Shown here piece after piece: positions 25,671 to 48,526 of a stretch of DNA of 64,000 nt (the first letter of the stretch is position 1; each line of letters begins with the position of its first letter). Source of the stretch: an uncultured Desulfobacteraceae bacterium (GTDB taxonomy: Bacteria > Desulfobacterota > Desulfobacteria > Desulfobacterales > CAZWAE01); the NCBI GenBank assembly GCA_964631805.1, contig CAZWAE010000001.1:190-64189 (forward strand), read 5' to 3'. The notes under the pieces are model-generated. The model did not search any database. It worked only from the letters and a program-made list of their open reading frames with translations, and was not told where the DNA came from. Position numbers and translations under genes: made by a program.

Positions 25671-25756
25671 AGGTTCCGTATGTTGTGTGTTGTCCGTTAT
25701 AGGTTTGGGTTTTGGAAGCGGGTTGTGAGTCCAACAGCAAATTGGCTTTTTAGACT

Positions 25757-25815
25757 ATAGGCTGTTAGGAAAAGCCTAAACGCCTAAGAGCCTTCAGCCT
25801 GGTCAGCTAATTACT
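25757..25815. repeat. copy A of a ~57-70 bp dispersed repeat (R element)
   Basis: taggctgttaggaaaagcctaaacgcctaagagccttcagcctggtcagctaattactc. About 6 mismatches over 57 nt versus the copies at 39294-39350 and 42876-42932. Confidence 0.8.
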
Positions 25816-25890
25816 CCTGCTCACTGTTTACTGTTCACCGCTTACCTTGTATTTCCCCTGCTCACCGTTTACCGTTCTCTGCTCACCGTA
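25816..25890. repeat. degenerate heptamer tract (YGYTYAC)n
   Basis: tgctcac|tgtttac|tgttcac|cgcttac at 25818-25845. This 28-mer is identical to 46368-46395. Further ctgctcaccg units continue to 25890. Confidence 0.8.
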
Positions 25891-32503: not shown

Positions 32504-35500
32504 TCATTTTCCTGCCAATTCATCGGCCATCAGCACTGCCAACCGCTCATCGTCGTCGATATGACCGGTGTAGGGTGTTGTTGTTGGTGCACTCGTCGTG
32601 GTGGTTGTTACGGTCGTGGCCGTTGTAGCCGTTGTAGCCGTTGTGACTGTTGTAGCCGTTGTAGCCGTTGTGGCTGTTGTAGCCGTTGTGGCTGTTGTAG
32701 CCGTTGTGGCCGTTGGCGGCGGCGCATCTGTTGGCGGCGGCGCATCCGTCGGCAGCGGCGCATCCGTAGGCAGTGGCGCATCCGTCGGCAGTGGCGCATC
32801 CGTCGGCAGCGGCGCATCCGTCGGCAGCGGCGCATCCGTCGGCAGCGGTGCATCTGTCGGCAGCGGCGCATCCGTCGGCGGCAGATCGGTGCTCTGGACA
32901 ATCTGCTCGGTGTTGGTGGTTATGACATTAGTGGTCGATTCGGCCGTCTGTTGAGCGGTATCGGCTTGTTGGGTGACCTGATCGGCCAATGCCTGAGCAT
33001 CTGCTTCGTTCGTGGCAGTAGCAGCCTGGGTCGCCAACTGATTGGCACTGTCGGCAGCCTGTGTGGCCTGTTGTGCGGTTGTCGCGGCCGTATTGGCTGC
33101 GGCAGTCGCCTGTTGTGCCGTGTTGGTATCGCCGACGGCCTGGGCGGATGCCGCAAATGAATTGGCATCTGCCACAGCGGCATTGGCTTCCGCTGACGCA
33201 GCGGCGGCCCGGGCTGCTTCTGCCGCAGCCTGGGCGCCGGCTTCTGTTGGGGCCGTGGCAGCCGCAGTCGCTATGTTAGATGCCGTATTTGCAGCGGTTT
33301 GAGCCTGGTTGGCGGCGGTCTGCGTTGCAGCGACAGCGGTCTGAGCGGCGGCGGCGGCTTCGGTATTGCCGGCAGCCTGTGCAAATGCCACATCCGAATT
33401 GGCCTCGGCCGTGGCAGCGGTGGCCTCGGCTGCCGCAGCGGACGCCTGGGCGGCGGCAGCCGCCGCATCAGCGGCAGCACCGGTAGCGGTGGCCGCCGTC
33501 TGGGCCTGGGTGTCGGCTGTTGCGGCTACCGTTTGGGCCTGGGTAGCAGCGGTGGCCGCATTGTCAGCCGCAGCCTGGGCGGCAGCGGCGGCAGCAGTAT
33601 TACCTTCCGCCTGAGCAGCAGCTACGTTGGCGTTGGCATCAGCGGTCGCCGCATTGGCCTGAGCGGCAGCAGCAGATGCCTGGGCGGCGGCGGCGGCGGC
33701 TTCCGCTGCAGCGCCGGTGGCCGTGGCGGCCGTTGTGGCCTGTGTATTGGCGGTTTCAGCAACCGTCTGGGCCTGGGTGGCTGCTTGAGCTGCATTGTTC
33801 GCAGCCGTCTGGGCGGCGGCGGCGGCAGTAGTATCGCCTTCGGCCTGGGCCGTGGCGACGTTGGCGTTGGCATCGGCCGTGGCCGCATTGGCCTGGGCGG
33901 CGGCGGCGGAGGCCTGGGCGGCAGCAGCGGCAGCTTCCGCTGCTGCACCGGTGGCCGTGGCGGCCGTGGTGGCCTGGGTGCTGGCGGTATCAGCCGCGGT
34001 CTGGGCCTGGGTGGCCGTGTTGATGGCGGCATCGGCGGCCGTCTGGGCGGCCTGGGCCTGTTCCGCCTGGCCGGTGGCCGCAGCGGTGGCGACTTCCGTC
34101 GTCGCCTCTGCAGCAGAAGCGTTGGCTTGGGCAGCAGAAGAAGCGGCCTGAGCAGCGGCAGCAGCCGCATCAGCAGCGGCCGTGTTTCCGGTCGCAACAG
34201 CCTGCTCAACCACAGCTACTTGCTGCTGGGCGGTCTGGGCAGCTGCGGTTGCCTGGCTGGCGGCAGTGGCGGCCTGCGCGGCGGCGGCACTGGCAGCGGC
34301 CGCCTCATCGGGGTTACCCGAAGCAGCGGCGACGTTGGCCTGGGCTGAAGCAACGGTTGCCTGGGCGGCAGCGGCTTGAGCGGCTGCCCAGGCAGCGGCC
34401 GCCGCTGCCTGGGCGGCTACAGTGGAAACACCCGACCGGGTCGCAACCCTCGCAGCTTCCTGGACCGCTTGATACCTGTTATTGGCTTCCTGAAGAGCAC
34501 TCTGAGCGTTGTTCAATGCAGCCTGGGCGGCAGCGAGTTGGGCATTGGTCTCCTGGGCATATGCCGTGGCAATCAAGCTGGAATAGGCATTGGCCAGCCA
34601 GGCCAGAATCGAATCCAGGGTGTTCTGCCTGTAGGATATGGTTTTGCCTTCGATCTTCCGGTTGAACCGCAGGGCTTCTTCCACACCGGCTTCAGCGGCG
34701 GTTACACCGGCAGAGGCCGTGGTCCGAGCGGCTTCGGCCTTGGTTTTAGCCAGTTCCGCACGGTGTGCAGGTGCTTTTCGGTTTAGTTTTTTGGCTCGAT
34801 CCTTAGCGGCATTATCCAATTGCGTTGCCTGGGTCTGGGTCCCCAAGGCTTTTTGTGCGGCCTGCTGGAAGGGCAGTTTCTCCACCTGGGGATCACCGGC
34901 CGGCAATTCCGATACCGGTACGGCCACATCCGAGGCTTTCATCTGCTGATCCTTAGGCACGGTGATTTTTTGACCACCGGTTACATCCGCGTCCCCAATC
35001 ACATCATAAGAGGTGCTGCCGTCACCGGTCACTTCAATGGGAAAATCGGTTCCCCGGATGGCGGCCACCATGGTGGGGGTCCTGACATTGAATTTAGGTC
35101 CGGTCTTTTTGCGCTTGATGTTGAACATGATCTTGCCGAGCAGTACATCGACACGGCGCGACACGACCTTGCCCCTGGAGAACAGTCCGCGTTTTTCCCG
35201 TTTCTGATTCAAGGTGATGTTGGCATTCACATCCAAACGCATCTCACTGCCGTCCACCATGCGGACCTCCGCCCGTCCGCTGGTGGTAACGATTTTATCG
35301 GAGTTGTAGACGGGAAAAGGCACTTTTTTCAGTTTGCCCCATTTACCCTTGGAGCGTACCACCACATTTCCGGTGTAACTGACAATATCACCGATTTTGG
35401 CAGAGGTTCCGGAATCTTTCTGAGCGTTGGCGTCCGTCTGGTAAACAAAAGCATGAAACGGAAAAATCATGCTTAATGCGATCACATAAACCAGTATCCT

Positions 35501-35509
35501 TTTTCCCAT
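32504..35509 (-). CDS. secreted FecR-domain protein with a giant Ala/Thr/Gln-rich repeat region, (PTDAPL)n and (TTA)n repeats
   Basis: Signal peptide plus a FecR domain (GDIVSYTGNVVVRS...RAEVRMVDGSEMRL...TPTMVAAIRGTDF). A low-complexity region of ~650 aa follows, with a 78-aa periodicity. Then come 7x PTDAPL + 2x PTDAPP, a TTA/TTV run, and the short tail TTPYTGHIDDDERLAVLMADELAGK. Confidence 0.8.
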   Translation of the reverse strand: MGKRILVYVIALSMIFPFHAFVYQTDANAQKDSGTSAKIGDIVSYTGNVVVRSKGKWGKLKKVPFPVYNSDKIVTTSGRAEVRMVDGSEMRLDVNANITLNQKREKRGLFSRGKVVSRRVDVLLGKIMFNIKRKKTGPKFNVRTPTMVAAIRGTDFPIEVTGDGSTSYDVIGDADVTGGQKITVPKDQQMKASDVAVPVSELPAGDPQVEKLPFQQAAQKALGTQTQATQLDNAAKDRAKKLNRKAPAHRAELAKTKAEAARTTASAGVTAAEAGVEEALRFNRKIEGKTISYRQNTLDSILAWLANAYSSLIATAYAQETNAQLAAAQAALNNAQSALQEANNRYQAVQEAARVATRSGVSTVAAQAAAAAAWAAAQAAAAQATVASAQANVAAASGNPDEAAAASAAAAQAATAASQATAAAQTAQQQVAVVEQAVATGNTAAADAAAAAAQAASSAAQANASAAEATTEVATAAATGQAEQAQAAQTAADAAINTATQAQTAADTASTQATTAATATGAAAEAAAAAAQASAAAAQANAATADANANVATAQAEGDTTAAAAAQTAANNAAQAATQAQTVAETANTQATTAATATGAAAEAAAAAAQASAAAAQANAATADANANVAAAQAEGNTAAAAAAQAAADNAATAATQAQTVAATADTQAQTAATATGAAADAAAAAAQASAAAAEATAATAEANSDVAFAQAAGNTEAAAAAQTAVAATQTAANQAQTAANTASNIATAAATAPTEAGAQAAAEAARAAAASAEANAAVADANSFAASAQAVGDTNTAQQATAAANTAATTAQQATQAADSANQLATQAATATNEADAQALADQVTQQADTAQQTAESTTNVITTNTEQIVQSTDLPPTDAPLPTDAPLPTDAPLPTDAPLPTDAPLPTDAPLPTDAPLPTDAPPPTDAPPPTATTATTATTATTATTATTATTVTTATTATTATTVTTTTTSAPTTTPYTGHIDDDERLAVLMADELAGK
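32600..32714. repeat. 9-bp coding tandem repeat (gttgtRgcY)n encoding (TTA/TTV)n
   Basis: About 12 consecutive 9-bp units seen directly, in frame within CDS 32504-35509. Confidence 0.85.
32715..32876. repeat. 18-bp coding tandem repeat x9 encoding PTDAPL/PTDAPP
   Basis: Nine units of ggcRgYggYgcatcYgtN counted from 32715 to 32876, in frame within the CDS. Confidence 0.9.
33000..34200. repeat. 234-bp (78-aa) coding tandem repeats, ~4-5 copies with decaying identity
   Basis: acgttggcgttggcatc recurs at 33624 and 33858 (234-bp offset). The protein unit is ATADANANVA..TATGAAAEAAAAAAQASAAAAQANA. Confidence 0.8.
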
Positions 35510-35875
35510 TCTTCCTTCTCCTTATTTAGGTAAAGAGATGATTTGCTCGTATTGAAAATGGCAACCGACTTGGGTTGTTGATGACAGGTACCGAATATTG
35601 CACTGCGCAGGTTAGAGAGTTTAGGTAGAACCCAATAGCAGCCCTAAACGGAACGCAACACTCTAAATCTATTAACTATATCGGACTTAAAAGCACTACA
35701 AGAAGATAAAATAACTCAAACCTTTAAAATTTCTCTCATATTTTCGGGCAATTGTCAAATTTTTTTTCTCCCTGGCCAGGAGTTTACCGACCGGAAACGG
35801 GCGCGTCGCATTCCATGAACCATTCCGAAACCCCAAACCGCTTCCAATCCGACACGCCACAACGGATTTCGCCCG

Positions 35876-38125
35876 TCAGGAATTTGTTACCACCCACTGC
35901 AACACGCGCTTTTGAAGCGCCTCGTTCTCAGGCGGTACGATTCCCAGAATAACGGTATCATCCGGATAGTATTCCCGCACCCGTCTGGCAGCCTTTTTCC
36001 AGGATTCGGGCTTTAATCGGAGCGACCGTTGGAAAAGATCCTGGAATTTGCGGATCCCTTCCTGCCGGGTGCGGACACTCCCCCCTGTTTCACCTGCTGT
36101 TTCTGGTTCGGTTTCGGGCAACAGATGCGCCCGCCATACCCAGTACCATGCACTGCTCATCAACAAATCCGGTTTCATCGGCGCCCACCGAGCCGCCGCA
36201 TCGAAACAGCGGTCCGCCGCCGGAAGCCAGCGTTCCATATAGTGGTAGGGATCATAGGTTTTGTAAGATAACCGATAACCCAGGTCATGCCATACATTGG
36301 CCAAAGTGGGGTTGAGAGAAAGGGTGTGGCGGAAAGCGGAAATCGCCTGTTCATTGATACGGTGTCGCGCTGTTTCCCCGGCGGCACCCATGGCGGCATA
36401 GGTGAGCGCACGGCGGAGATGATTTTCCGCATTGCCGGGTGCATATGAAAGTGCTGTTTCAACCGCCTCAGGATCCGGGTTCCAGTTGAGATTCAGAGTG
36501 GAGTTCCATTCCGTGGGACTGTGGATCTCGGATATAAAATGTCGGCCGGTGGCAATGATGGCACCCCCCAAACCCAGTAAAACCACCGCCCCGGCAACGA
36601 TGCGAACCGGCATTGCAGGCCGGATGGTTCGTTTCGCATAAAAAAACCGCTCCAGGTATCCCTTTCGTTGACGATGTACGACCACAAATCCGACTCCCGA
36701 AAGGGCAGAGAGGGTCAACGGTGTGGCGGGGATGTGCATGTTTATATCCATAAAACCGTAAAACCCCATGGACAGGAGCGCGCCCATAACCCCTGCACCG
36801 ATGCCCATGGCAAAACGATCCGATCGAGACCGCCAAACCCGGAAAATACCGACCCAAATACCCACAAAAAGGCCGATGAAGATCAGCAGACCGGCTATCC
36901 CGGTATCACAGCCGGATTCGATCCAGTCGTTGTGAGCATGTCCGCTGGAACTCACCTTATCCTTTTGATCCGCCATGTATCGTGGATAAAGATACCGGAA
37001 ATTCCCGCCCCCTACGCCCAAAACCGGATATTCTCCGATCATTGGCAGGATTTCACGGACCGTCTCCCGCCGAACATCCGACCTATTTTCCCCCTTATCA
37101 GGTGATGCGTTATGTCCGATGCCCAGATACATCCCGAAGCCAAGCAACGTCAGGCAGAAAAGCACCGGCGCAACATGCCGCCATCGGAAATAACGATGAA
37201 AGCCCACGATTCCCACTCCGGCAAACAGCGCTGCGGTCATCGATAGGATGCCCTCACGGGACCCGGACAGAAAAATCGCTAAACCCATAAAAATGGCAGC
37301 AAACAAAAGTATCCTTGTCCCTGGGTCGGCCGCTTCAGGCGCAAACCAGGCAACCACCCGCTGCACCAGCACCCGGCGCCCCCCCAATCCGGACACCATT
37401 CGCTTTTGTTTGGGCTGCCGGGCCACCATGCACCCCAGTGTCAGCAAAAGGGCCATCAGCAGATACCCTGCATAATGATTGGGTGCAATATAGGTGCCCG
37501 TGGCCCGGCCGGAAAACCGTGCATGCACCCACCACCATACACGCGGGGAATCGCTGGCAAGCTGATAGAATCCATAAATCGATTCGAAAAAGCCGACGGC
37601 AACAAGGGTGTAGACCATGCCCATTATTCGCTTTTTTGACGTGACCGTATGGACCACCAGAAAAAACATCCCCGCGCAGGACAATAGCTTCAGCCCCATC
37701 AGACGGACCGGATACCGGTAATAGGCGATACTGGTCCAGGTCGGGGGCCCGGCGCCGACCCCGGCCCCGTCAAGGGCCTGGTGCATCATCAATTTATCGG
37801 CATATCCCTTGGGGGAAAGAAACGCCACCCATGAGGCGGGCAGCGGCATCCATTGTATTCCAAATAGCAGGATCAGTAGAATCACCGGCAAACTTACAGG
37901 CGTTTTTATCCAGACTACAAAACCGTCTTTGTTCAAAAAAAAACGGTCCAACACCCACGTCCCCAGGAGACTGAACACCAGCACCTGAATTACGGAATAG
38001 GCCCATACATGGACGGATCCAAAGGCCAGCGGCGCAAACAACAACAAAAACAGGAGGCCGGCGTAAATAATCCGGTCGCAGGTTTTGGCCGGCTGGTTCA
38101 GGGGGATGAATTGCGAATTTTTCAA
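35876..38125 (-). CDS. Wzy_C (O-antigen ligase/polymerase-like) membrane protein with C-terminal TPR domain, paralog 1
   Basis: 749 aa with ~12 TMs and a Wzy_C core (GSREGIL...PVLGVGGGNF...GHAHNDWIESGCDTGIAG). A C-terminal soluble TPR-like region of ~230 aa follows. Confidence 0.8.
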   Translation of the reverse strand: MKNSQFIPLNQPAKTCDRIIYAGLLFLLLFAPLAFGSVHVWAYSVIQVLVFSLLGTWVLDRFFLNKDGFVVWIKTPVSLPVILLILLFGIQWMPLPASWVAFLSPKGYADKLMMHQALDGAGVGAGPPTWTSIAYYRYPVRLMGLKLLSCAGMFFLVVHTVTSKKRIMGMVYTLVAVGFFESIYGFYQLASDSPRVWWWVHARFSGRATGTYIAPNHYAGYLLMALLLTLGCMVARQPKQKRMVSGLGGRRVLVQRVVAWFAPEAADPGTRILLFAAIFMGLAIFLSGSREGILSMTAALFAGVGIVGFHRYFRWRHVAPVLFCLTLLGFGMYLGIGHNASPDKGENRSDVRRETVREILPMIGEYPVLGVGGGNFRYLYPRYMADQKDKVSSSGHAHNDWIESGCDTGIAGLLIFIGLFVGIWVGIFRVWRSRSDRFAMGIGAGVMGALLSMGFYGFMDINMHIPATPLTLSALSGVGFVVVHRQRKGYLERFFYAKRTIRPAMPVRIVAGAVVLLGLGGAIIATGRHFISEIHSPTEWNSTLNLNWNPDPEAVETALSYAPGNAENHLRRALTYAAMGAAGETARHRINEQAISAFRHTLSLNPTLANVWHDLGYRLSYKTYDPYHYMERWLPAADRCFDAAARWAPMKPDLLMSSAWYWVWRAHLLPETEPETAGETGGSVRTRQEGIRKFQDLFQRSLRLKPESWKKAARRVREYYPDDTVILGIVPPENEALQKRVLQWVVTNS

Positions 38126-39221: not shown

Positions 39222-39375
39222 TCCGTTCACCGCTTTCAGTTTACTGTTTACTGCTCAATAGCTCATTAGCTTTTTAGCCTAAAGGCTGTTAGCAAAAACC
39301 TATACGCCTAAATGCCTTCAGCCTGATCAGCTAATTATTCCTGCTCACCGCTTTCAGTTTACTGTTTACTGCTCC
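39222..39375. repeat. heptamer tract interrupted by R-element copy B, flanked by a perfect 29-bp direct repeat
   Basis: caccgctttcagtttactgtttactgctc occurs at 39228-39256 and again at 39346-39374. The 89 bp between them contain the R copy (39271-39339). Confidence 0.85.
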
Positions 39376-41139
39376 TATTTTCAATATACTTCACAACTGC
39401 CCCCCTGAGCCCGATATTGCCTATCGGGAGGATACCAATGACAACCGATCGTTCCGGATAATAGTTCCAGATTTGATCCACAGCCAACATGACCTTTTTT
39501 TCTTCACTTTTAATCTCAAAAGAGGTCCTAAACAGCTTCTGGAACTTTGTGATCGCCGCCTTTCGATCCTCCACCACCTCGCTATGCGAACCGCTTTGGC
39601 CAGTTTCCGCAAAATGGGTCGACCGCCACACCCAGTACCAGGCGCTGTTGAACAAGATGCCCGGCCGTCTGGGCGCATACCGAACCGCCTGATCAAAACA
39701 CCGATCCCCACAGCGAAAGGGTCGCGGCGTCTATACCAGACGCGGAGCATCCGGGTTATAAAAAAAACCGTCCCGACCAGCACGAGAATAAACCCGGAGA
39801 CACCCAGTTCGGCACCCAGAGTGACCCAGTCGTTGTGCAGATTACCGCCAGTCAGCCGCCGAGCGAATTCAGGCGCCGGAGCCGGAGGGGCATATCGCGG
39901 ATATAAAGAGGGCAGCCCCCCCATGCCGACACCGGCGACCGGGTATTGGTAAACCATCGGCAGCGCTACCCGTGTTTCCAGCATCCTGTTGTCAAACTGA
40001 CGTTCTATGGACTGGAACTTGTTGAGGGTCCGATCGATACCGATATAGTATCCGTAGCCAAATATGACCAGGCAGACGGCCATAGTCCCCAATGCCTGCC
40101 GGCGATACTGCGCTTTCGCCATAAAGAGCAGACTCACCAGCAACATGGAGATGGAAGCTGCTAGAATGCCCCCCCTGGATCCGGACAGCAGCAGGGCGAT
40201 GCCGACGATGAGGGTAATGTAAAAAAAGAGCGCCACCCGGGAACGGCCAGATTCCGAGAGCGCGCGATGCAGCTTTTTCTTGAATCCCTGCTTTACTGTC
40301 GTTCGTTCAGAGCGGCTTCGGTCAACTTTCCCGCGAAGCGCCACCACATATCCCAAGCCCAGACTGGCGATCATCTCCATGTACCCGGCAAAATGATTGG
40401 ACCCTATAAATGTACCGCTGGCCCATGCGACCCGGCTGGGCCACCACCATACATTCGGCCTGGGGCTGAACACCTGGTAGATGGCATAAACCGCCTCGAA
40501 ACAGCCCACCAGCAGCAACACGGTCACCAGCATCTCTATCCGTTTATGGGTATTTGCTGAGTTTAGCACCAGAAAAAAGAGTGCCGCATAAGTGGCCATC
40601 TTGAGCCACTCGACACCTGTGGCATGGCGGTTGTATGTCAGGGGTATCCAGCCTGAAAAGGCCCGTTCCGGTTGGGTGTCCCGCGCCAAAAGTTCCATCA
40701 ACGGCGCTTTATCCGCAGCGGTTTCCGGAGACAGAAACGCCACCAGAGCAGGAGGCATGGGGATTGCCTGCAGCATCCCGATCAGCAAAAGAACAAGAAT
40801 GAACCCGCCTAAAGGCGTCCGCACCCATGACCATTCCACATGCTGACGTGAAAAAATCTTATCGAGCAGATACAATAGCCCCAACGAGAACACGCCGATT
40901 TGGACTACCGTATACGCCCATACGTGGCGCAAACCGAAGGCCAGCGGTGCGAACACCAGTAAAAGGATGATTCCCCCAAAAACGATCCGGTCAGGGGTTA
41001 GGAGGCCGGATCGAGACTTTTTGAGGGTCGTTTTTCGCCGTCTGTCGGCCAATAAAAAATCTTTGAAGGAAATGTGAGATGTAGCGGTGAGTCTGCTTAC
41101 AGCTAACCTGATCATTTTACCCCCGCTCACTCTCGACAA
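39359..41139 (-). pseudogene. Wzy_C-TPR paralog 2, disrupted by a ~589-bp internal deletion with frame change
   Basis: Roughly 85-95% DNA identity (by eye) to paralog 3 on both sides of a junction at 39699-39707 (caccgatcc). In paralog 3 the two matching 9-mers lie at 48861-48869 and 49450-49458. The C-terminal 98-aa ORF (39359-39655) is in a different frame from the 572-aa ORF (39421-41139). Confidence 0.75.
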
Positions 41140-41227: not shown

Positions 41228-41256
41228 TTGACATCGGATTATTATCGTATTATTAT
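41228..41256 (+). promoter_or_regulatory. sigma70-like promoter of the Phd/RelE cassette
   Basis: TTGACA (41228-41233), 17 nt, TATTAT (41251-41256). It overlaps the short inverted repeat cgtat-N4-atacg, a candidate operator. Confidence 0.5.
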
Positions 41257-41845: not shown

Positions 41846-42006
41846 CCCAGCGAAGCTACAATTCACCAGCTCAACAGCTATACAAAATGTGAACGGAAAG
41901 CAGTGAACTTAAAACAGGGAAATGGCCATTGTAAGCAGTAAGATGTGAACAGTGAAAAATATGTACATTTACGAATAATTTTTCTGTTTCCCCTGCTCAC
42001 TGCCGA
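41846..42006. repeat. heptamer tract in mixed orientation (GTRARCR units followed by ctgctcac units)
   Basis: gtgaacggaaagcagtgaac...gtaagcagtaagatgtgaacagtgaaaaa, then ...ctgtttcccctgctcactgccgactg. Confidence 0.65.
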
Positions 42007-42152
42007 CTGTTCACCGCTTACCCTTTTCCTTTTTTCACGCGAATTGATACTGCGGATAAGACCATTCAGCATCGCTGAAATGGTCCTACTTCTCTCCAAT
42101 AAATCTTGGGAACAACCATGATCCATGAACTCGAGTTCCCGTGCAATATAAT
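42007..42152 (-). pseudogene. 3' fragment of a four-helix-bundle (S23-IVS/Avd family) gene
   Basis: Minus-strand reading YIARELEFMDHGCSQDLLERSRTISAMLNGLIRSINSREKRKRVSGEQ aligns with the C-terminus of the intact copy at 46378-46758. The N-terminal two thirds are missing and the original stop is lost. Confidence 0.65.
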
Positions 42153-42614: not shown

Positions 42615-42893
42615 ATGGCTAATATTCAAGTTAAACGAGCCGATATCCATTATGCGAACCTTGATCCGGTTGTGGGAAGAGAAACAGGAAAAACCCGGCC
42701 TGTGCTTGTGATTCAAAATGATATCGGCAACATGTACTCACCAACGACCATTGTAGCGGTGATTACTGAATATTCAGAAAAAAAGGCATCCTATCCCATC
42801 TGTGTGGCCATCAAAAAGGGAAATGGCCTCAAAAAAGACTCAATTGTTAATTTGTCCCAGATTAGAACTATTGATAAAAACCTATACGCCTAA
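42615..42893 (+). CDS. MazF/PemK-family endoribonuclease toxin, C-terminally truncated/replaced
   Basis: ADIHYANLDPVVGRETGKTRPVLVIQNDIGN...TIVAVIT...KDSIVNLSQIRTIDK is the MazF core. The last 5 codons and the stop (KNLYA*) are supplied by R-element copy C. About 20-25 C-terminal residues expected in the family are absent. Confidence 0.8.
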   Translation: MANIQVKRADIHYANLDPVVGRETGKTRPVLVIQNDIGNMYSPTTIVAVITEYSEKKASYPICVAIKKGNGLKKDSIVNLSQIRTIDKNLYA

Positions 42894-42932
42894 ATGCCTT
42901 CAGCCTGGTCAGCTAATTATTCCTGCTCACCG
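42876..42932. repeat. R-element copy C (5'-truncated)
   Basis: 57 nt identical to 39294-39350 except for one a/g difference. Confidence 0.9.
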
Positions 42933-43134
42933 GCGACCGCTCACCGCTTATCGATACTCCGTTTTCCCCCTGCTCACCGCCGCCTGTTAACTGTTTACCC
43001 CGTGAAATCTGTTTTCAAGTAGCTATTTCACCGGGGCCCACTTTATTTTCCACCTGCTCAACAGCTTACCAGCTCATCAGCCCAATAGCTTACCAGCTCA
43101 ACAGCTAATCTGCTTAACAGCTGTAATCTATTGA
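42933..43134. repeat. degenerate 7-8 nt periodic tract including 9 consecutive octamers (CAGCTYAN)
   Basis: ctgctcaa|cagcttac|cagctcat|cagcccaa|tagcttac|cagctcaa|cagctaat|ctgcttaa|cagctgta at 43054-43125. A hairpin lies at 42998-43036. Confidence 0.8.
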
Positions 43135-43500
43135 TTACAAAACACACTCCGTATCCCCAGGCATATACTCCGGAACAATCTCTTTGAATTTATCTCGTAT
43201 CCCACATCCATCCTGTTTTTCGGCCAACTGGTGCAATTCTTCGATCCCCTCAATCAACCATTTCTTATAGCTTTCCTGATCGCCGTACCCGTTAAAATTT
43301 TCCCCGGCACGAATCACCTTGATCTTTTCGTGTCCGGTTTCGACGATCCCTTCGCCCTCTGTGATCAATTCTTCATAAAGCTTCTCGCCGGGACGGAGGC
43401 CCGTGTAGACGATCTCGATGTCTCGATCAGGCTCCTTCCCGGACAGCCGGATCAGATCTTTGGCCATATCCACGATCTTTACCGGTGTGCCCATCTTCAA
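43135..43500 (-). pseudogene. CapD/WbpM-type polysaccharide biosynthesis protein, C-terminal fragment (copy 1, frame intact)
   Basis: MGTPVKIVDMAKDLIRLSGKEPDRDIEIVYTGLRPGEKLYEEL matches the C-terminal region of CapD/PglF-type 4,6-dehydratases. The ~500 N-terminal residues are absent, and homology ends where AT-rich DNA begins (~43505). Confidence 0.75.
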
Positions 43501-43512
43501 TATAATAGATCC

Positions 43513-43541
43513 TTGACATAAAAGAAAATGTGCCTCATAAT
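43513..43541 (+). promoter_or_regulatory. sigma70-like promoter of the DUF4258/YgiT cassette
   Basis: TTGACA (43513-43518), 17 nt, CATAAT (43536-43541), within an AT-rich block. Confidence 0.5.
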
Positions 43542-44470: not shown

Positions 44471-44636
44471 GGCTCCGCTCTCCCGTCCTCACCTTCTCAT
44501 GCACTTCCCGCTCTCACGCTCTTACGCCTCATGCTTTCTCGCTCTCCCACCTCACGCCCTTCCCGCTCTCACGCCTAACGTTCTCACGCTTACGATTCCC
44601 CTGCTCACTGACACCTGCTTACAGCTCACCTCGTCG
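44471..44636. repeat. degenerate 7-8 nt periodic tract (CGCTCTYA/CGCCTCA units)
   Basis: cgctctca|cgctctta|cgcctca|tgctttct|cgctctcc|cacctca|cgcccttc|ccgctctca|cgcctaa|cgttctca|cgcttac...ctgctcactg. Confidence 0.75.
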
Positions 44637-44946
44637 TTACAACACACACTCCGTATCCCCAGGCTGATATTCCGGTACCATCTCCTTGAACTTCTCACGA
44701 ATACCGCAACCATCCTGTTCATCCGCCAATAGGTAAAGCTCATCGATTTCTGCCATCAGCCATTTCTTGAAGCTTTCCTGATCGCCGTGTCCATTAAATT
44801 TTCCCGACACGGATTATCTTGATTTTTTCATGACCGGTTGTAAAGATCCCCTCCCCCTCTGTAATCAACTCCTCTTATAGCTTTTCTCCCGGACGCAGGC
44901 CGGTATAAACAATATCTATATCCCTATCCGGCTCCTTTCTGGACAG
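44637..44946 (-). pseudogene. CapD-like C-terminal fragment, copy 2 (nonsense + frameshift)
   Basis: The minus strand reads LSRKEPDRDIDIVYTGLRPGEKL*EELITEGEGIFTTGHEKIKIIRVGK. After a 1-nt deletion it continues NGHGDQESFKKWL...GCGIREKFKEMVPEYQPGDTECVL*. Confidence 0.7.
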
Positions 44947-45136
44947 GTCTACCCCGTCAATATATGATTCCTGATGAGGATTATTCATTTCCGTGACCCT
45001 AAAATCCTGCCGGTCAGTGTCTTTTTGAAATAGAAGGCGATTCATGTGGCCAGCGATAAAATATCAATTGACATAATTACCATAATAATGTTAATTATGA
45101 TTAACACTTTCCCACTCATAGCAGAAAGTATACTTT

Positions 45137-46351
45137 ATGGAATATTGGTTTTCCGAACAAACGGCAAGGCTTCGGTCTCTTCCTGAAACCAGGCGCTACC
45201 TTTATCATGATATCGATTGGTCCGGTCGCTGTGTCGGCCTTTTGGGCGCCCGCGGTACGGGAAAAACCACCCTGATGTTGCAATACCTTCTCGAAAACTT
45301 CCCTGGATCTGACAAAACCCTTTACGTTTCCGTGGATCATCCCAAATTTCAAGCCCTATCCCTTTATGAATTCGGTCGTGAATTTTCTCAATACGGCGGA
45401 AAGATCCTTTTTCTGGACGAAGTTCATAAATATGACCGGTGGGCAAGCCATATCAAAACCTTGTATGATTCATGCCCTGATCTGCGGATTATCTTTTCCG
45501 GATCGAGCTTGCTGCAGTTGCAGGTTCAAGATACCGATTTGAGCCGTCGCGCGGTATTCTACCACCTGCACGGTCTATCCCTGAGGGAATTTTTATTTTT
45601 CCAGCAAAACATTGTCTTTCCCGTCATTGATTTCAACGATCTGATCGAGAATCATATATCCCATTCACAGCAAATCTGTCGGAAAATAAAACCTCTTGAA
45701 CATTTTCGTAATTACTTACGATATGGCTATTATCCGTATTTCACAGAGGGCATAGATGTCTATCCCATGAAACTCAATGAAGTTATCAAACAAGTGCTGG
45801 AAACGGATCTGCCTTTTGTCGGACATGTGGATACCCGACAAATCTCAAAACTGAAAAAGCTAATATATCTTTTAGCGATCAATGTCCCTTCTCAGGTCAA
45901 TATTCAAAAGCTTTCGGCAAGTACAGAAATATCCAGGCCCAAGGTCTATGAATATTTGGAATATCTCAAAAAGGCGCGTCTACTTCATTTAATCAGGGGA
46001 GGAGAAACAGGCTATAAAATCCTATCCAAGCCTGATAAGATTTTTCTGGAGAATCCCAATTTGGCCCATGCATTGGCAGATACAGTCAATACAGGTACGA
46101 TCAGAGAAACCTTTTTCGTCAATCAAGTAACCAATGCGTTTGACCGTTATCCATCTTTGGCCAAAAGTTCAATTACGACCGCACGGCACGGTGATTTTAC
46201 AGTACTGGAGCAATTTAGTTTTGAGATCGGCGGTCGGACCAAGGGAGCCAGGCAAATCAGGGGGATTGACAATGCTTTTATTGCCTCGGACGATTTGGAG
46301 ACCGGATTTTCCCATAAAATCCCGCTGTGGCTATTTGGATTTCTCTACTAA
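45137..46351 (+). CDS. AAA+ ATPase, AAA_14/DUF4143 family (COG1373-like)
   Basis: 404 aa with Walker A GARGTGKTT, Walker B ILFLDEVH and a C-terminal DUF4143-like region. Confidence 0.85.
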   Translation: MEYWFSEQTARLRSLPETRRYLYHDIDWSGRCVGLLGARGTGKTTLMLQYLLENFPGSDKTLYVSVDHPKFQALSLYEFGREFSQYGGKILFLDEVHKYDRWASHIKTLYDSCPDLRIIFSGSSLLQLQVQDTDLSRRAVFYHLHGLSLREFLFFQQNIVFPVIDFNDLIENHISHSQQICRKIKPLEHFRNYLRYGYYPYFTEGIDVYPMKLNEVIKQVLETDLPFVGHVDTRQISKLKKLIYLLAINVPSQVNIQKLSASTEISRPKVYEYLEYLKKARLLHLIRGGETGYKILSKPDKIFLENPNLAHALADTVNTGTIRETFFVNQVTNAFDRYPSLAKSSITTARHGDFTVLEQFSFEIGGRTKGARQIRGIDNAFIASDDLETGFSHKIPLWLFGFLY

Positions 46352-46377
46352 CCGGTTTTCTGCGACCTGCTCACTGT

Positions 46378-46758
46378 TTACTGTTCACCGCTTACTCTTT
46401 TCCTTTTTCCACGCGAATTGATACTGCGGATAAGACCAATCAGCATCGCTGAAATGGCCCTGCTCCTCTCCAATAAGTCTGTGAAAAAATCCTGATCAAT
46501 ATATTCCAGTTCTTTTGCAATATAAAGCTGCGTTCTTAGTTCCCCGCATGACCCTTTCGCAATATTCAGGAAGCGGATAAAATCCCGGGGGCTGTTCCGC
46601 TCATATCCCTCGGCAATGTTCGAGGGAACTGACACAGCAGCACGACATATCTGATCCTTAAATCCATAGTCCCGACATTCTTTGAAAACTCCATAGATAT
46701 CAACTGCCAACCGACATCCTCTCTTCCACACCTCCAATCCCTCAAACCCCTCCGACAT
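46378..46758 (-). CDS. four-helix-bundle protein (23S rRNA intervening-sequence / Avd family)
   Basis: LEVWKRGCRLAVDIYGVF...RAAVSVPSNIAEGYERNSPRDFIRFLNIAKGSCGELRTQLYIAKEL is the TIGR02436-type signature. The ORF is open to 46794, but M13 (46758) gives the family-typical N-terminus. Confidence 0.85.
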   Translation of the reverse strand: MSEGFEGLEVWKRGCRLAVDIYGVFKECRDYGFKDQICRAAVSVPSNIAEGYERNSPRDFIRFLNIAKGSCGELRTQLYIAKELEYIDQDFFTDLLERSRAISAMLIGLIRSINSRGKRKRVSGEQ

Positions 46759-46794
46759 TTCACATTCCCTTCCCGCTCCCAGCCTCCAGCTCAC

Positions 46795-46876
46795 CGCTCA
46801 CTTTCCAATCCCCCGCTTACTGTCCACTTCCTTCATTCCCCTGCTCACTGCCCCCCGCTTACAGCTCACATCGTCG
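46795..46876. repeat. degenerate heptamer tract
   Basis: ctcaccgctcactttccaatcccccgcttactgtccac...ctgctcactgccccccgcttacagctcac. The last ~45 nt are shared with 44594-44636. Confidence 0.7.
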
Positions 46877-47062
46877 TTACAACACACACTTCGTATACCC
46901 AGGCATATATTCCGGAACAATTTCTTTGAATTTATCTCGTATCCCACACCCATCTTGTTTACTCGCTAACCTATAGAAGTCCTCGATTCCAGCGAACAGC
47001 AACTTCCTGAAGGTTTCCTGATCCCCGTGTCCGTTGAAATGGTCACCGGTCCGGAAGATCTC
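46877..47062 (-). pseudogene. CapD-like C-terminal fragment, copy 3 (shortest)
   Basis: The minus strand reads EIFRTGDHFNGHGDQETFRKLLFAGIEDFYRLASKQDGCGIRDKFKEIVPEYMPGYTKCVL*, collinear with the last ~60 residues of copy 1. Confidence 0.65.
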
Positions 47063-47184: not shown

Positions 47185-48348
47185 ATGTACAAAAGAATCC
47201 TCTGTTTGCCTGAAACGCCTCGAAAGAGCTTTTTCCTTTGGGGCCCCCGTCAAACGGGAAAAACCACTCTGCTGAAATCGCATTATCCTGATGCTTTCCG
47301 AATCGACCTGCTTAAAACCGATGAATTGGTGCGCTACGCGAAGAATCCATCCCGTCTGCGGGAAGAGGTTACAGCGCTTTCAGCTGAAACATTGATCGTA
47401 ATCGACGAAATTCAGAAAGCCCCCGCTCTCCTGGACGAAATTCATTACATGATTCAGGAGAAACGAAGTGTTTTCGCAATGTGCGGCTCGAGTGCAAGAA
47501 AAGTTAGACACGGCCACGCAAACCTGTTGGGCGGACGCGCCATGCGATACGAACTGTTTGGGCTGGTTTCGGAAGAGCTTGCCGAAGACTTTTCCATTGG
47601 TCATTTCGTCAACACGGGTCCGCTTCCTGAACACTACGGGGCCGAATCCCCCCACCTGGCGCTCCGCTCCTATGTTGAGGATTATCTGCGCGAAGAAATT
47701 CTGCAGAAGGGTCTGACACGCCGGTTGCCTTTGTTTTCCGACTTTCTCCGAGTGGCAGCTATCGGAGACACAGAAACGGTGAACATGTCCAACATCGCCC
47801 GGGAGACGGGAATCGCGGTCTCAACGGTCCGGGATCATTTTGGAATACTGGTAGATACCCTGATCGGTGCGTTTCTTCCGGCTTTTACGTTGCGTCCCAA
47901 ACGCCGCACTATCCAGGCCCCCAAATTTTATTTCAGGGATCTGGGAGTGGTTAACCATCTGGCAAGACGAGGTATCGTCAGGCCTGGTTCTGAGCTATTC
48001 GGAAAAGCCTTTGAAAACTGGCTGTTTCACGAGATCTCCGCTCATACTCGATACAGCGAATTGTTTTATGATATTTCGCACTGGCGGCTTTCCAGCGGTA
48101 TTGAAGTTGACTTCATTCTGGGCCCCGGTGCCATCGCCATCGAGGCAAAAGGCAAGCATCGCATTACCACCAGCGACACAAAGGGGCTTCTTAATTTCAA
48201 AAAAGATTTCCCTTCGGTCAAGCAACTGCTCATCCTCAGTCTTGAGGAACGGCCACGGCTCACTAAAGATGGCGTCCACATCCTGCCTCACAGGAAATTC
48301 GCCAAATCTCTTTGGCAGGGAAAATGGAATTCAGATCTTGCTCAGTAG
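47185..48348 (+). CDS. AAA+ ATPase, AAA_14/DUF4143 family (second, divergent)
   Basis: 387 aa with Walker A GPRQTGKTT, Walker B LIVIDEIQ and a C-terminal DUF4143-like region. Confidence 0.85.
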   Translation: MYKRILCLPETPRKSFFLWGPRQTGKTTLLKSHYPDAFRIDLLKTDELVRYAKNPSRLREEVTALSAETLIVIDEIQKAPALLDEIHYMIQEKRSVFAMCGSSARKVRHGHANLLGGRAMRYELFGLVSEELAEDFSIGHFVNTGPLPEHYGAESPHLALRSYVEDYLREEILQKGLTRRLPLFSDFLRVAAIGDTETVNMSNIARETGIAVSTVRDHFGILVDTLIGAFLPAFTLRPKRRTIQAPKFYFRDLGVVNHLARRGIVRPGSELFGKAFENWLFHEISAHTRYSELFYDISHWRLSSGIEVDFILGPGAIAIEAKGKHRITTSDTKGLLNFKKDFPSVKQLLILSLEERPRLTKDGVHILPHRKFAKSLWQGKWNSDLAQ

Positions 48349-48351
48349 TTC

Positions 48352-48526
48352 ACAAGCTTTACCAGATCCCTGCCCCCCCCATTCACTTCTCACCAGCTTA
48401 TCAGTTCAATAACTCAGTAGCTCTTTTCCTGCTCGCTACCTGCCCAGCAAAATTTATCCTGTGAAACCTTTTTGTCGCTGTTTCTCTGGAACCCGTTTTT
48501 GTCATTGTTTCACCGGGGCTCACTAC
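48352..48526. repeat. degenerate periodic tract plus hairpin downstream of Wzy_C-TPR paralog 3
   Basis: ttcacttctcaccagcttatcagttcaataactcagtagctc..., with the hairpin cctgtgaaac...gtttcaccgggg at 48458-48518. Confidence 0.65.

Follow-up and report, generated by a model that had tools for sequence, protein, structure and literature searches.

The polysaccharide locus described here raises the question of why short repeats of 7 or 8 nt lie at the 3' ends of so many of its genes. We analysed a window of 64,000 nt, the whole stretch of DNA under study, in which a sequence-only reading had marked eight such tracts and likened them to the heptanucleotide STRR repeats of filamentous cyanobacteria. 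To our knowledge, STRR-like repeats have gone unexplained since their description in 1990. In the window, the tracts consist of 7-nt (partly 8-nt) units in decayed tandem arrays and belong to the (GTRAGCR)n/(YGCTYAC)n family, which is a heptanucleotide-repeat class found widely in bacteria. As to their origin, we lean towards the view that they are arms and solo remnants of cassettes carrying a four-helix-bundle (4HB) gene, and that they are recombination joints of a mosaic locus. Arrays reading (GTRAGCR)n in the sense direction are called R arrays below, and their complements Y arrays.

All eight tracts, from 25816-25890 to 48352-48526, were present on inspection of the sequence, and two further tracts were found at 35820-35875 and 25700-25745 (Table 1). 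The nine CAGCTYAN octamers could be read directly at 43054-43125, and TRF, which is independent of the lag test, returned period 8 with 8.4 copies at 43056-43122 and with 14.5 copies at 44476-44590. The 30-nt module CCTGCTCACYGNNNNCYGYTYACNGCTYAC had nine matches in the window with at most two mismatches, all nine on the plus strand, against an expectation of 0 (none found in 100 shuffles). A repeat reported as an identical 28-mer is indeed repeated, but it is longer, an identical 30-mer at 25816-25845 and 46366-46395. We also checked the objection that periodicity might be a general intergenic trait. The results showed z ≥ 2 in only 7 of the 30 intergenic regions of the window that measure 60 nt or more, indicating that periodicity is not a general property of its intergenic DNA. 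The units were degenerate, no tract attaining 17 of 21 lag-7 matches, and the common ones were GTGAGCA, GTAAGCG, GTGAACA and GTAAACA.

Table 1. Repeat tracts and associated genes of the window (lag-7 and lag-8 z scores are against mononucleotide shuffles)
Feature	Position	Strand	Basis	Remarks
Two 30-nt R-array modules (25816-25845, 25857-25886)	25816-25890	-	Module matches; lag-7 z = 4.6	Minus-strand reading (GTRARCR)n, 3 nt past wza stop (25891-25893)
C/A-rich (Y-like on sense strand) degenerate heptamers	25700-25745	-	Sequence	About 30 nt upstream of wzc start (25670)
D7 element, imperfect palindrome of about 62 nt made of GCCTAANN octamers	25732-25815	.	Repeat-family comparison	Further copies 39254-39345 and 42876-42932 (57 nt only)
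Degenerate array	35820-35875	-	Enclosing intergenic region z = 2.5	Directly past Wzy_C-TPR paralog 1 stop (35876-35878)
R array interrupted by D7 copy	39222-39375	-	Lag-7 z = 4.8	Insert flanked by perfect 29-nt direct repeat (39228-39256, 39346-39374); reaches from Wzy_C paralog 2 stop to GT2 start (39206)
Sole R-spacer-Y inverted pair in window	41886-42021	-	Module match, fold; lag-7 z = 3.3 over 41846-42006	R module 41992-42021 at 4HB fragment end, spacer of about 31 nt, Y arm 41886-41960 (minus-strand sense)
4HB (PF05635) gene, 3' fragment	42022-42126	-	Translation ...LLERSRTISAMLNGLIRSINSREKRKRVSGEQ; D10 repeat	
Flagged tract	42933-43134	-	Lag-8 z = 4.3	Nine proximal octamers right past CapD fragment 1 stop (43135-43137); 12-bp hairpin 43000-43045; heptamer modules 42969-42998 and 42922-42951, the latter extending into the mazF-truncating D7 copy
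About 14 degenerate octamers (CGCTCTYA on plus strand) and heptamer module 44600-44629	44471-44636	-	Lag-8 z = 2.3	Follows CapD fragment 2 stop (44637-44639)
R module 46366-46395, including last codons and stop of intact 4HB gene	46352-46397	-	Lag-7 z = 4.2	4HB end ...VSGEQ, stop 46378-46380; adjoins plus-strand AAA_14 stop (46351); no Y arm after
Intact four-helix-bundle gene	46378-46794	-	PF05635 2e-36; TIGR02436 8.5e-37; NF008912	
R array with module 46840-46869	46795-46876	-	Lag-7 z = 2.0	Between CapD fragment 3 stop (46877-46879) and 4HB gene
Pyrimidine-rich tract, weak periodicity	48352-48526	-	Lag-8 z = 2.3	Hairpin at about 48459-48520; between Wzy_C paralog 3 stop (48527) and plus-strand AAA_14 stop (48348)

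The plus strand was pyrimidine-rich, as had been claimed, at 63-76% in seven tracts with C well above G; the exception, 41846-42006, reached only 45% because it includes the inverted arm. The claimed strand bias exists in the window but is a simple consequence of the minus-strand position of all the neighbouring polysaccharide genes. In minus-strand reading, the arrays began 0-10 nt past a stop codon or overlapped it. This was so at wza, at each of the three CapD fragments, at the 4HB gene and at Wzy_C paralogs 2 and 3, as had been proposed, and also at Wzy_C paralog 1. The tracts equally adjoined stops of convergent plus-strand genes, namely ParE (41845) and two AAA_14 ATPases.

One explanation of this composition and placement is that the plus strand is a Rho-loading (rut-like) site for antisense transcripts, so that read-through from the plus-strand toxin-antitoxin and ATPase genes would be halted before the minus-strand polysaccharide genes and the G-rich sense transcript would escape. 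A rut region is C-rich and G-poor over at least about 70 nt, and the plus-strand RNA, with C/G counts of 28/10, 78/22, 39/9 and 68/31 over 75-200 nt, has this composition, whereas the sense RNA does not. Five tracts fill precisely the space where two genes converge, the plus-strand modules have promoter-like sites of their own (41228-41256 and 43513-43541), and canonical promoters and intrinsic terminators showed no excess over shuffles in the region. We nevertheless consider termination quite improbable as the explanation, because the same arrays occur with the same polarity in cyanobacteria, which are not known to have Rho. In tandem operons, moreover, the Y array occupies the sense strand immediately ahead of the following start codon, where loading would terminate the operon, and the conservation of unit sequence exceeds a compositional requirement.

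The distribution outside the window was assessed by a genome scan with the module, seeded with one unit type, and the counts given here rest on the loci that it listed. The arrays occurred in at least 120 species or loci of at least 13 phyla among the matches listed, and arrays of the same heptamer units were perfect in Prochloron, Calothrix and Rivularia among the cyanobacteria, as well as in many other phyla, which upheld the comparison with the STRR class. The tie to gene 3' ends proved a general rule of the class; degeneracy, which had been taken as a special feature, appears to reflect the decay in the window of what are perfect arrays in other places. Among the at least 120 loci listed, the purine strand began 0-15 nt past a stop codon, and median array-to-gene gaps were 1-5 nt among the matches listed, with examples beside genes of 200-900 aa. 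In single arrays among these matches, the Y strand adjoined with its 3' end an opposite-strand stop 66 times vs a same-strand start 18 times, the former count being somewhat inflated because the ORF calls were heuristic and ORFs running into R arrays end there automatically. Inverted pairs among the at least 120 loci were oriented R-spacer-Y in 42 cases vs Y-spacer-R in 2, and the genes flanking them were tandem in 20, convergent in 10 and divergent in 2 of the matches listed. One locus (L012) carried TGATAAC (= TAACTGA) units mixed among TGCTCAC units. A scan of viral contigs with the 30-nt module gave 0 matches, which indicates that the arrays are not phage-borne.

R units contain TGA or TAA, so that a run of three closes every reading frame; Y units of the common types have no stop and no ATG, GTG or TTG start. 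All-frame stops were rejected as a general cause of the polarity, since GGGAATC and GGGGACT heptamers share it without stop codons. The STRR1-3 units of heterocystous cyanobacteria were reportedly given by Mazel in 1990 as CCCCAGT, TTGGTCA and CAACAGT, and the window differs from STRR in the strict sense in its units and its Desulfobacterales host. It shares with the broader STRR/LSSR class the head-to-tail 7-nt units (lag 7 in five tracts, period 8 in three) and a G/purine-rich strand whose 5' end adjoins an ORF, as found in every window array. Heptamers of the GGGNATC type have a run of at least three G per unit, four units being able to fold into a G-quadruplex; the window's consensus units have no G-run, so such structures are impossible here.

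Known heptamer arrays include the cyanobacterial STRR, GGGAATC in Xanthomonas and GGGGA(C/T)T in Nostoc (Rehm et al. 2015, PMC4692102) and TAACTGA in Beggiatoaceae (MacGregor 2015, PMC4679880), and the polarity described above is already reported for GGGAATC and GGGGA(C/T)T (Rehm 2015, PMC4692102). Known arrays and the present family have in common that the G/purine-rich strand is sense within 50 nt past a stop and its complement sense just before a start, that they are rare between divergent genes, form inverted pairs, have about four units and favour no gene-function class. The window arrays differ in being degenerate and partly 8-nt and in their Desulfobacterales host. With the polarity published, the novel point is the coupling of heptamer arrays to 4HB genes (PF05635/TIGR02436, 'S23p'), a link absent from the passages of Rehm 2015 (PMC4692102) and MacGregor 2015 (PMC4679880) consulted here.

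To characterise this coupling, we searched metagenomes for 4HB loci with a three-sequence alignment, the first 4HB alignment having been too divergent. The results showed an operon layout of stop-R array-4HB-Y array-start, with both arms canonical in 40 of 73 distinct metagenomic loci. Over 80 independent metagenome loci, the upstream array was R in 55 and Y in 0, and the downstream array was Y in 59 and R in 5; all eight 4HB genes outside the window were bracketed R...Y (8/8). The metagenomic neighbours were co-oriented with the 4HB gene upstream (41/51) and downstream (54/60), at gaps of about 80 and 68 nt, and in locus L214 the order metK-(GGTTCAG)n-4HB-(CTGAACC)n-ahcY left just 31 and 25 nt. 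The commonest units beside 4HB genes (GTGAGCA, GTAAGCA, GTGAGCG, GTAAGCG, GTAAACA and GTGAACA) are those of the window. These arms bracket 4HB cassettes, so the earlier idea that the arrays are relics of the 4HB gene was right in spirit, and its detail, that they are pieces of the 4HB coding end, was not. The window's own intact 4HB gene is flanked R/R, not R/Y, and lacks the 3' arm. PADLOC gave no match for the 4HB protein as a known defence protein.

Traces of cassette movement were found in the wza-wzc spacer (25671-25890, lag-7 z = 6.4 overall), where the heptamers at 25700-25745 are the putative 3' arm. In two relatives (L128 and L127, wza 83-85% identical) this spacer is filled by a 4HB gene with an R arm on one side and a Y arm on the other, and in the window it is empty, which directly supports the proposed role of the tracts as recombination substrates. 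At the orthologous position the window and L130 have arrays without a 4HB gene and L129 has no arrays, and the unit sequence there turned over between GTRAGCR, GTTGTCA, GCTGGTG or none. The same role is supported within the window by a 57-nt D7/array segment, 98% identical at 39294 and 42876, that cuts off mazF at 42876, and in relatives by L212 and L213, which are 98% identical over 2113 bp with homology ending inside the Y array; L213 carries an extra (CGCTTAC)10 that L212 does not. Each of the three CapD 3' fragments retained its array, the arrays coincided with the joints of a mosaic in which such fragments are combined with Wzy_C paralogs, AAA_14 ATPase genes and toxin-antitoxin modules, and similar cassette contexts were found in relatives L211, L212, L213 and L215. 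The window's R-spacer-Y pair belongs to repeat D10, which is 85% identical to 46366-46525.

In this family, an R array lies at or just past the stop of the upstream gene and a complementary Y array just before the next start, and the two are inverted arms around a short spacer or a small 4HB gene placed inside the operon. Under the cassette reading that we favour, the locus comprises an intact cassette, a 4HB fragment accompanied by a hairpin, and an orthologous site at which relatives carry the gene. The arms may let a cassette reside in an operon without harm, R stopping all frames and Y offering neither stop nor start, and the dispersed arrays of 30-60 nt may supply the DNA homology for its gain, loss and shuffling. 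In the window, most arrays no longer have a partner arm and are probably relics whose present function, recombination aside, is slight.

The main competing account is that the arrays are near-neutral simple sequence repeats (SSRs), generated by replication slippage that favours 7-nt units and without function. They would gather in tolerant intergenic DNA, mainly promoter-free 3' ends, expand up to the coding region and decay by point mutation, and the same tolerant places would simply receive 4HB, toxin-antitoxin and ATPase genes as well. In many bacterial genomes no long SSRs are commoner than heptamers, and slippage has been proposed for them (Mrazek 2007, as summarised in PMC4679880). Unit number does differ between strains, as in L213 vs L212 and in Coxiella with 2 or 3 GACAGAT units (PMC4990558), the spacer units turn over, and the arrays in the window have degenerate units and mostly lack a partner. 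Only 6 of 120 array loci among the matches listed contained a 4HB gene, so that most arrays (95% of the loci listed) occur without one and could be the primary phenomenon, merely exploited by 4HB genes. No empty sites at carbamoyltransferase-SxtJ or methyltransferase-RfbC junctions were found among the at least 120 array loci listed. Slippage alone, however, predicts neither the 42 vs 2 polarity of the listed inverted pairs nor the 55 R vs 0 Y upstream arms at 4HB loci. It also leaves unexplained the recurrence of one unit family in at least 13 phyla and the cassettes that fit between housekeeping genes and are separated from them by arrays alone, and we consider it rather unlikely.

A role as contingency repeats, in which unit number would switch the polysaccharide genes by phase variation, has the surface-polysaccharide setting and frame-shifting units of 7 or 8 nt to recommend it. 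Contingency-locus SSRs, however, are polymorphic repeats in 5' coding regions or promoters, and the window arrays lie past stops rather than in 5' coding regions or promoter spacers, with units too degenerate for efficient slippage (none at 17/21 lag-7 matches). The tracts were also invariant across six independent metagenome contigs (99.99-100% identity, no indels, at most two substitutions). Hypervariability was rejected on these grounds, and phase variation is barely conceivable.

At the RNA level, we assessed pairing between the arms of 4HB loci. The arms could form about 24 Watson-Crick pairs (-40 kcal/mol), and the arm duplex energy was -68.8 kcal/mol compared with -51.7 kcal/mol for shuffled arms. 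Arms of the same locus paired no better than arms from different loci, with equal duplex energy, indicating no locus-specific complementarity. Sense and antisense folds showed no asymmetry (stability 19 vs 14, G·U pairs 67 vs 60, p = 0.46), and the slippage account gains from this absence of an RNA-level selection signal in the co-variation and asymmetry tests. In the window, the arms of the single R-Y pair were paired in the MFE fold without significance (z = -1.4), neither the wza-wzc spacer (z = +0.39) nor the flagged-tract spacer had a significant fold, and Rfam returned no family over the whole window at the gathering threshold or over 38-49 kb at E ≤ 1, and no rRNA. We suggest that in polycistronic RNA the arms might pair over about 24 bp into a stem-loop around the cassette, in the manner of the 23S rRNA intervening sequence (IVS), which RNase III processes; such R/Y pairing and RNase III processing are putative.

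The arrays might instead be multi-site platforms in 3' or 5' UTRs, where a single-strand RNA-binding protein (S1, cold-shock proteins, CsrA-like proteins or the 4HB pentamer itself) or sRNAs would tune the stability or translation of flanking genes. [quoted passage not shown] Arrays typically have about four units, and 4HB relatives crystallise as pentamers: the PDB relatives of the window gene, 2GSC and 2RLD, each have five chains per entry, and 2GSC is described as a homopentamer (PMC4990558). The flanking genes, however, are functionally unrelated, here and in Rehm (PMC4692102), specific multi-site binding to the degenerate window arrays would be weak, and units differ between 4HB subfamilies and lineages. 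Judged from these sequences, a platform role appears very unlikely.

The cassette reading has a close known parallel in the S23p-bearing IVS. In Coxiella, the 23S rRNA IVS carries an S23p ORF, its 28-bp terminal inverted-repeat stem is cut by RNase III (Warrier et al. 2016, PMC4990558), and two to three tandem heptamers lie upstream of the ORF in strain-dependent copy number (PMC4990558); S23p-encoding IVSs are also reported in Leptospira and Brucella (PMC4990558). The shared traits are a PF05635 ORF, tandem heptamers upstream and a position inside a longer transcript. The ORF at 46378-46794 is of this family, and the IVS, regarded as a selfish element, has an ORF prone to decay, comparable to the fragment at 42022-42126. 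Terminal inverted repeats that could pair enclose the ORF in the R...Y loci of relatives (8/8, and 40 of 73 distinct loci), whereas the window's intact copy is R/R and the R-spacer-Y pair of the fragment lies downstream of the ORF. The IVS sits in helix 25 or 45 of 23S rRNA and its stem is a unique 28 bp, whereas the window elements sit between protein genes in mRNA operons and the arms are generically complementary heptamer arrays.

A bolder proposal, which we regard as unlikely, is that 4HB (S23p/TIGR02436) genes with R/Y arms are unrecognised, pan-bacterial, operon-resident, IVS-like selfish cassettes, that orphan arrays and R-spacer-Y hairpins are their empty sites, miniature derivatives or footprints, and that the 4HB pentamer recognises the heptamers at about one unit per subunit. 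If true, the rRNA intervening sequence would be a special case of a cassette that happened to land in 23S rRNA. 

Neither heptanucleotide arrays nor the large 4HB/S23p protein family, both widespread in bacteria, has a known function, and the two are physically coupled in many phyla in the fixed stop-R array-4HB-Y array-start order, the layout of S23p-bearing rRNA IVSs. The coupling turns two vague puzzles into a single testable hypothesis, covering 4HB-array binding, RNase III cutting of the arms and cassette movement by array recombination.

Other element classes resemble the arrays in part. Like REP/BIME elements and MITEs, they are short repeated extragenic elements past stops or between convergent genes and recombination joints, and an R-short spacer-Y unit resembles a miniature element with two inverted ends and no cargo. 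A REP/BIME is, however, a fixed imperfect palindrome of 20-40 nt with a RAYT, whereas the arms are non-palindromic tandem heptamers of variable length (only the adjacent D7 is palindromic) and the 4HB protein is not among known transposases. No Y1/RAYT transposase emerged when 10 ORFs, mostly at 41-46 kb, were scanned against Pfam, no target-site duplication was seen in the MITE comparison, where array copies shared unit type and not sequence, and Rehm et al. (PMC4692102) report no mobile-element association. The small modules (4HB, toxin-antitoxin pairs, AAA_14/DUF4143 ATPases) stacked between conserved polysaccharide genes, with repeated sequence at every joint, recall an integron-like 'junkyard'; unlike integrons, the locus has no integrase or attC-type sites, its modules lie on both strands and its joints are heptamer arrays. 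In practice, arrays show where polysaccharide loci have recombined and where their assemblies break, and because R arrays stop all frames they truncate ORF ends and may cause annotation errors.

The D7 element was considered as a structured RNA and set aside, given weak fold scores (z = -1.4 to -2.1) and only three copies. A metagenome scan for its core, GCCTTCAGCCTGRTCAGCTAATTA, gave 0 matches and missed even the source contig, which indicates that the scanned collection does not contain this organism. One contig (L006) begins exactly at a repeat copy.

We found all eight of the degenerate 7-8-nt tracts that the sequence-only reading had described, including that at 42933-43134, with TGCTCAC, TGTTTAC, TGTTCAC and CGCTTAC as units on the plus strand; TRF recovered both octamer runs independently. 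The 30-nt array consensus (module) CCTGCTCACYGNNNNCYGYTYACNGCTYAC had nine matches in the window with at most two mismatches, 9/9 on the plus strand, against 0 expected by chance (100 shuffles). A repeat reported as an identical 28-mer proved identical but longer, a 30-mer (25816-25845 = 46366-46395). All tracts showed significant autocorrelation at a lag of 7 or 8 (z = 2.0-4.8), while z >= 2 was reached in just 7 of the 30 window intergenic regions 60 nt or longer, indicating that the signal is local; this speaks against the alternative that the tracts are a compositional trait of all intergenic DNA. As proposed, the arrays begin 0-10 nt past a minus-strand stop or overlap it, following wza, three Wzy_C paralogs, three CapD fragments and a four-helix-bundle (4HB) gene. 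Five tracts adjoin convergent plus-strand stops just as closely (ParE, truncated MazF, the MqsA-like gene and two AAA_14 ATPases). The plus strand was pyrimidine-rich as claimed except in tract 41846-42006, because an inverted arm also lies inside it. The finding is real.

We scanned species-representative genomes once with the module, which returned at least 120 loci, and called the genes there heuristically. Among the matches listed, the first 86 titles covered at least 13 phyla (Acidobacteriota, Gemmatimonadota, Verrucomicrobiota, Chloroflexota, Bacteroidota, Cyanobacteriota, Pseudomonadota, Planctomycetota, Desulfobacterota, Bdellovibrionota, Myxococcota, Actinomycetota and Bacillota), and the arrays were near-perfect (YGCTYAC)n; 2.9 million viral contigs gave 0 module matches, compared with the at least 120 bacterial loci. 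Also among the matches listed, the 3' end of the pyrimidine-rich (Y) strand of single arrays adjoined an opposite-strand stop in 66 cases and a same-strand start in 18, with a median gap to the gene end of 1-5 nt, so that the order in gene sense is stop-(GTRAGCR)n, the purine-rich (R) array. The first array units often provide the stop, which in about 40% of cases lies a few nucleotides upstream. The stop-adjoining count is somewhat inflated, since R arrays stop three frames and end any ORF entering them; the genes counted are nonetheless 200-900 aa long. Of the inverted pairs, 42 were R-spacer-Y and 2 were Y-spacer-R; the genes around the pairs were in tandem (20), convergent (10) or divergent (2).

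This class of heptamer array and its polarity are already known: Rehm et al. describe arrays that obey this rule in Xanthomonas (unit GGGAATC) and in Nostoc (unit GGGGA(C/T)T), which lie on the coding strand within 50 bp past a stop or on the non-coding strand before a start, with few reported between divergent genes (PMC4692102), and MacGregor describes TAACTGA repeats immediately 5' of starts in Beggiatoaceae (PMC4679880). One locus from our scan (L012) mixes TGATAAC (= TAACTGA) units among TGCTCAC units. The window tracts are decayed members of this class, and their strand bias follows from its polarity rule and the orientation of the neighbouring genes. Our literature search found no mention of tandem GTGAGCA/TGCTCAC arrays in bacteria, and neither this specific unit family nor its spread over at least 13 phyla appears to have been described. 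The flanks of eight scanned loci (L007, L012, L037, L056, L063, L069, L100 and L107) held further heptamer arrays (AGCAATA, GGTCGAA, ATCCGTA, CCCGACA, GCGGGCT, CGTGAAT, GTGACGG), often adjoining TGCTCAC arrays and some forming hairpins of their own; in compound arrays, GTGAGCA units were frequently gene-proximal and GGGAGCA units distal.

We then compared 4HB genes outside the window. In the first set, 8/8 showed the order upstream stop, R array, 4HB ORF, Y array, next start. We sampled 80 further metagenomic loci independently, all from one 4HB subfamily: upstream arrays were R at 55 loci and Y at 0, downstream arrays were Y at 59 and R at 5, and both arms were canonical at 40. Neighbours in this sample mostly shared the orientation of the 4HB gene (41/51 upstream, about 80 nt away, and 54/60 downstream, about 68 nt away); they were commonplace operon members, among them carbamoyltransferase/SxtJ, C-methyltransferase/RfbC and UvrD. 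Homologues of the window 4HB gene showed the same arrangement (L211, L214 and L215, loci from other genomes or metagenomes). The L214 array encodes a C-terminal 'SEP*', and SEP ends 26/120 homologues of the window protein. Array units varied among 4HB subfamilies, with the G-rich arm always 5' and the C-rich arm always 3'. The reverse association was weak, a 4HB gene occurring in 6 of the at least 120 array loci, directly against the array in 5/6 among the matches listed. The window wza-wzc spacer contains tract 25816-25890, and the same spacer in the closest relatives ranged from an intact 4HB gene to neither gene nor array. Above all, the role of these arrays as paired arms of operon-resident 4HB cassettes seems not to have been described before.

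Features of the window, followed by compared loci (L-numbers) from other genomes and metagenomes
Feature	Position	Strand	Description
Octamer run	43054-43125	+	nine CAGCTYAN units
Octamer run	44476-44590	+	~14 CGCTCTYA units
D7 element	25732-25815, 39254-39345, 42876-42932		imperfect ~62-nt palindrome of GCCTAANN octamers
Wzy_C-TPR paralogs	35-51 kb		three, one with frameshift
GT2 glycosyltransferase	35-51 kb		one gene
4HB genes (PF05635/TIGR02436)	35-51 kb		one intact, one fragmentary
Phd/ParE	35-51 kb	+	opposite strand
Antitoxin and 3'-truncated MazF	35-51 kb	+	opposite strand
DUF4258/MqsA-like	35-51 kb	+	opposite strand
capD fragment 1	43165-43506	-	C-terminal; residues 513-626 of 636-aa homologue
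capD fragment 2	44664-44958	-	C-terminal, frameshift; residues 529-627 of 636-aa homologue
capD fragment 3	46907-47059	-	C-terminal; residues 576-626 of 636-aa homologue
AAA_14/DUF4143 ATPase gene 1	45137-46351	+	antisense insert; PADLOC PDC-S01, E = 3e-29
AAA_14/DUF4143 ATPase gene 2	47185-48348	+	antisense insert; PADLOC PDC-S01, E = 2e-47
L211			DUF218 - R..Y - 4HB - Y - ATG of Wzy_C
L214	2470-2920		metK - (GGTTCAG)n 31 nt - 4HB - (CTGAACC)n 25 nt - ahcY; nothing else between
L215			4HB, tight R/Y hairpin at stop, then capD
L127 wza-wzc spacer			wza 85% identical; decayed 4HB gene
L128 wza-wzc spacer			wza 83% identical; intact 4HB gene
L129 wza-wzc spacer			without arrays or 4HB gene
L130 wza-wzc spacer			(GCTGGTG)9 array, without 4HB gene

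The 23S rRNA intervening sequence (IVS) of Coxiella, termed a selfish element, carries an S23p (= 4HB) ORF in the loop of an RNase III-cut 28-bp terminal inverted-repeat stem, with two or three tandem GACAGAT heptamers, depending on the strain, 5' of the ORF; the Xanthomonas S23p homologue is a homopentameric toroid (PMC4990558). The window 4HB protein matched structures 2GSC (this Xanthomonas homologue) and 2RLD. The operon cassettes share the ORF, inverted arms and heptamers with the IVS, but their host transcript is an mRNA instead of an rRNA and their arms consist of generic repeats. Array-armed 4HB cassettes link STRR-like repeats to the S23p-type IVS.

At the family level the R and Y arms are complementary, with about 24 possible Watson-Crick pairs (-40 kcal/mol) and an arm duplex energy of -68.8 kcal/mol, compared with -51.7 kcal/mol for shuffled arms. 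As read from the sequence, R units carry TGA or TAA, so three units with a 7-nt period place a stop in every frame, while common Y units are free of stops and of ATG, GTG and TTG. We infer that the cassette is 'operon-compatible' and that, by analogy with the IVS, its transcript would fold with the arms around the insert into an RNase III-type substrate. Cognate arms paired no better than non-cognate ones, sense and antisense folds were equally stable (19 vs 14; G·U 67 vs 60), and neither the only R-spacer-Y pair in the window (41886-42021) nor the window wza-wzc spacer gave a significant fold. Read at the DNA level instead, the arms may act in the manner of a mobile unit's terminal repeats, with R-short spacer-Y hairpins as its putative miniature derivatives and single arrays as putative solo ends.

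The best named homologues of the window wza were from Desulfobacterales, the order to which the source bacterium of the contig belongs, and contigs identical to that of the window were present in several water-column metagenomes. Six independent contigs were 99.99-100% identical to the window with zero indels, which rules out hypervariable tracts. The 35-51 kb region is a polysaccharide locus turned mosaic. Intact capD is absent from the 64-kb window, and the three capD fragments are remnants of repeated replacement events; PDC-S01, matched by both inserted ATPases, is a PADLOC candidate defence family.

The suspicion that arrays serve as recombination joints was supported. Two strains (L212 and L213) were 98% identical over 2113 bp, comprising the upstream gene, R arrays, 4HB gene and first 59 nt of the Y array, and similarity was lost completely inside that array (L212 2857-2916; L213 2038-2160), where L213 has an extra (CGCTTAC)10; beyond it, the toxin-antitoxin cargo differed. 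In the window, an array adjoins each of the three copies of the palindromic D7 element. A 57-nt segment of D7 palindrome and array start is 98% identical between 39294-39350 and 42876-42932, and mazF breaks off at the left edge of the latter copy, at position 84 of its 109-position Pfam profile. A perfect 29-nt direct repeat brackets the D7 copy at 39257-39345, and all three CapD 3' fragments have kept their array. Direct modules lie on both sides of the intact 4HB gene (46840-46869 and 46366-46395); if they recombined, the gene would be lost, leaving a pattern like that of the two modules after wza. Together these observations indicate that the arrays are joints of the mosaic; most of those in the window are probably relics, still relevant as recombination substrates. 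The D7 core had zero matches in a metagenome scan of a collection that lacks the host organism itself.

Two copies of a hairpin, CCGTGAAAT...ATTTCACGG at 43000-43045 and CTGTGAAAC...GTTTCACAG at 48459-48520, differ in loop length and by a compensatory base-pair change, T-A to C-G. Each is located in a tract that separates convergent genes, with a U-rich stretch after it on the plus strand, and may serve the inserted plus-strand modules as a terminator. The frameshift in Wzy_C-TPR paralog 2 (39359-41139, minus strand) splits the gene into ORFs 39421-41139 and 39359-39655, and starts and stops of this paralog and ParE vary between the gene callers of different samples. Beside the polysaccharide genes, a 1001-aa minus-strand ORF (32504-35509) probably encodes an Ala/Gly-rich repetitive protein; its repeat region (33-35 kb) has 64-70% G+C and nested tandem repeats of 9 nt x 10.8, 18 nt x 9.4 and 234 nt x 3.
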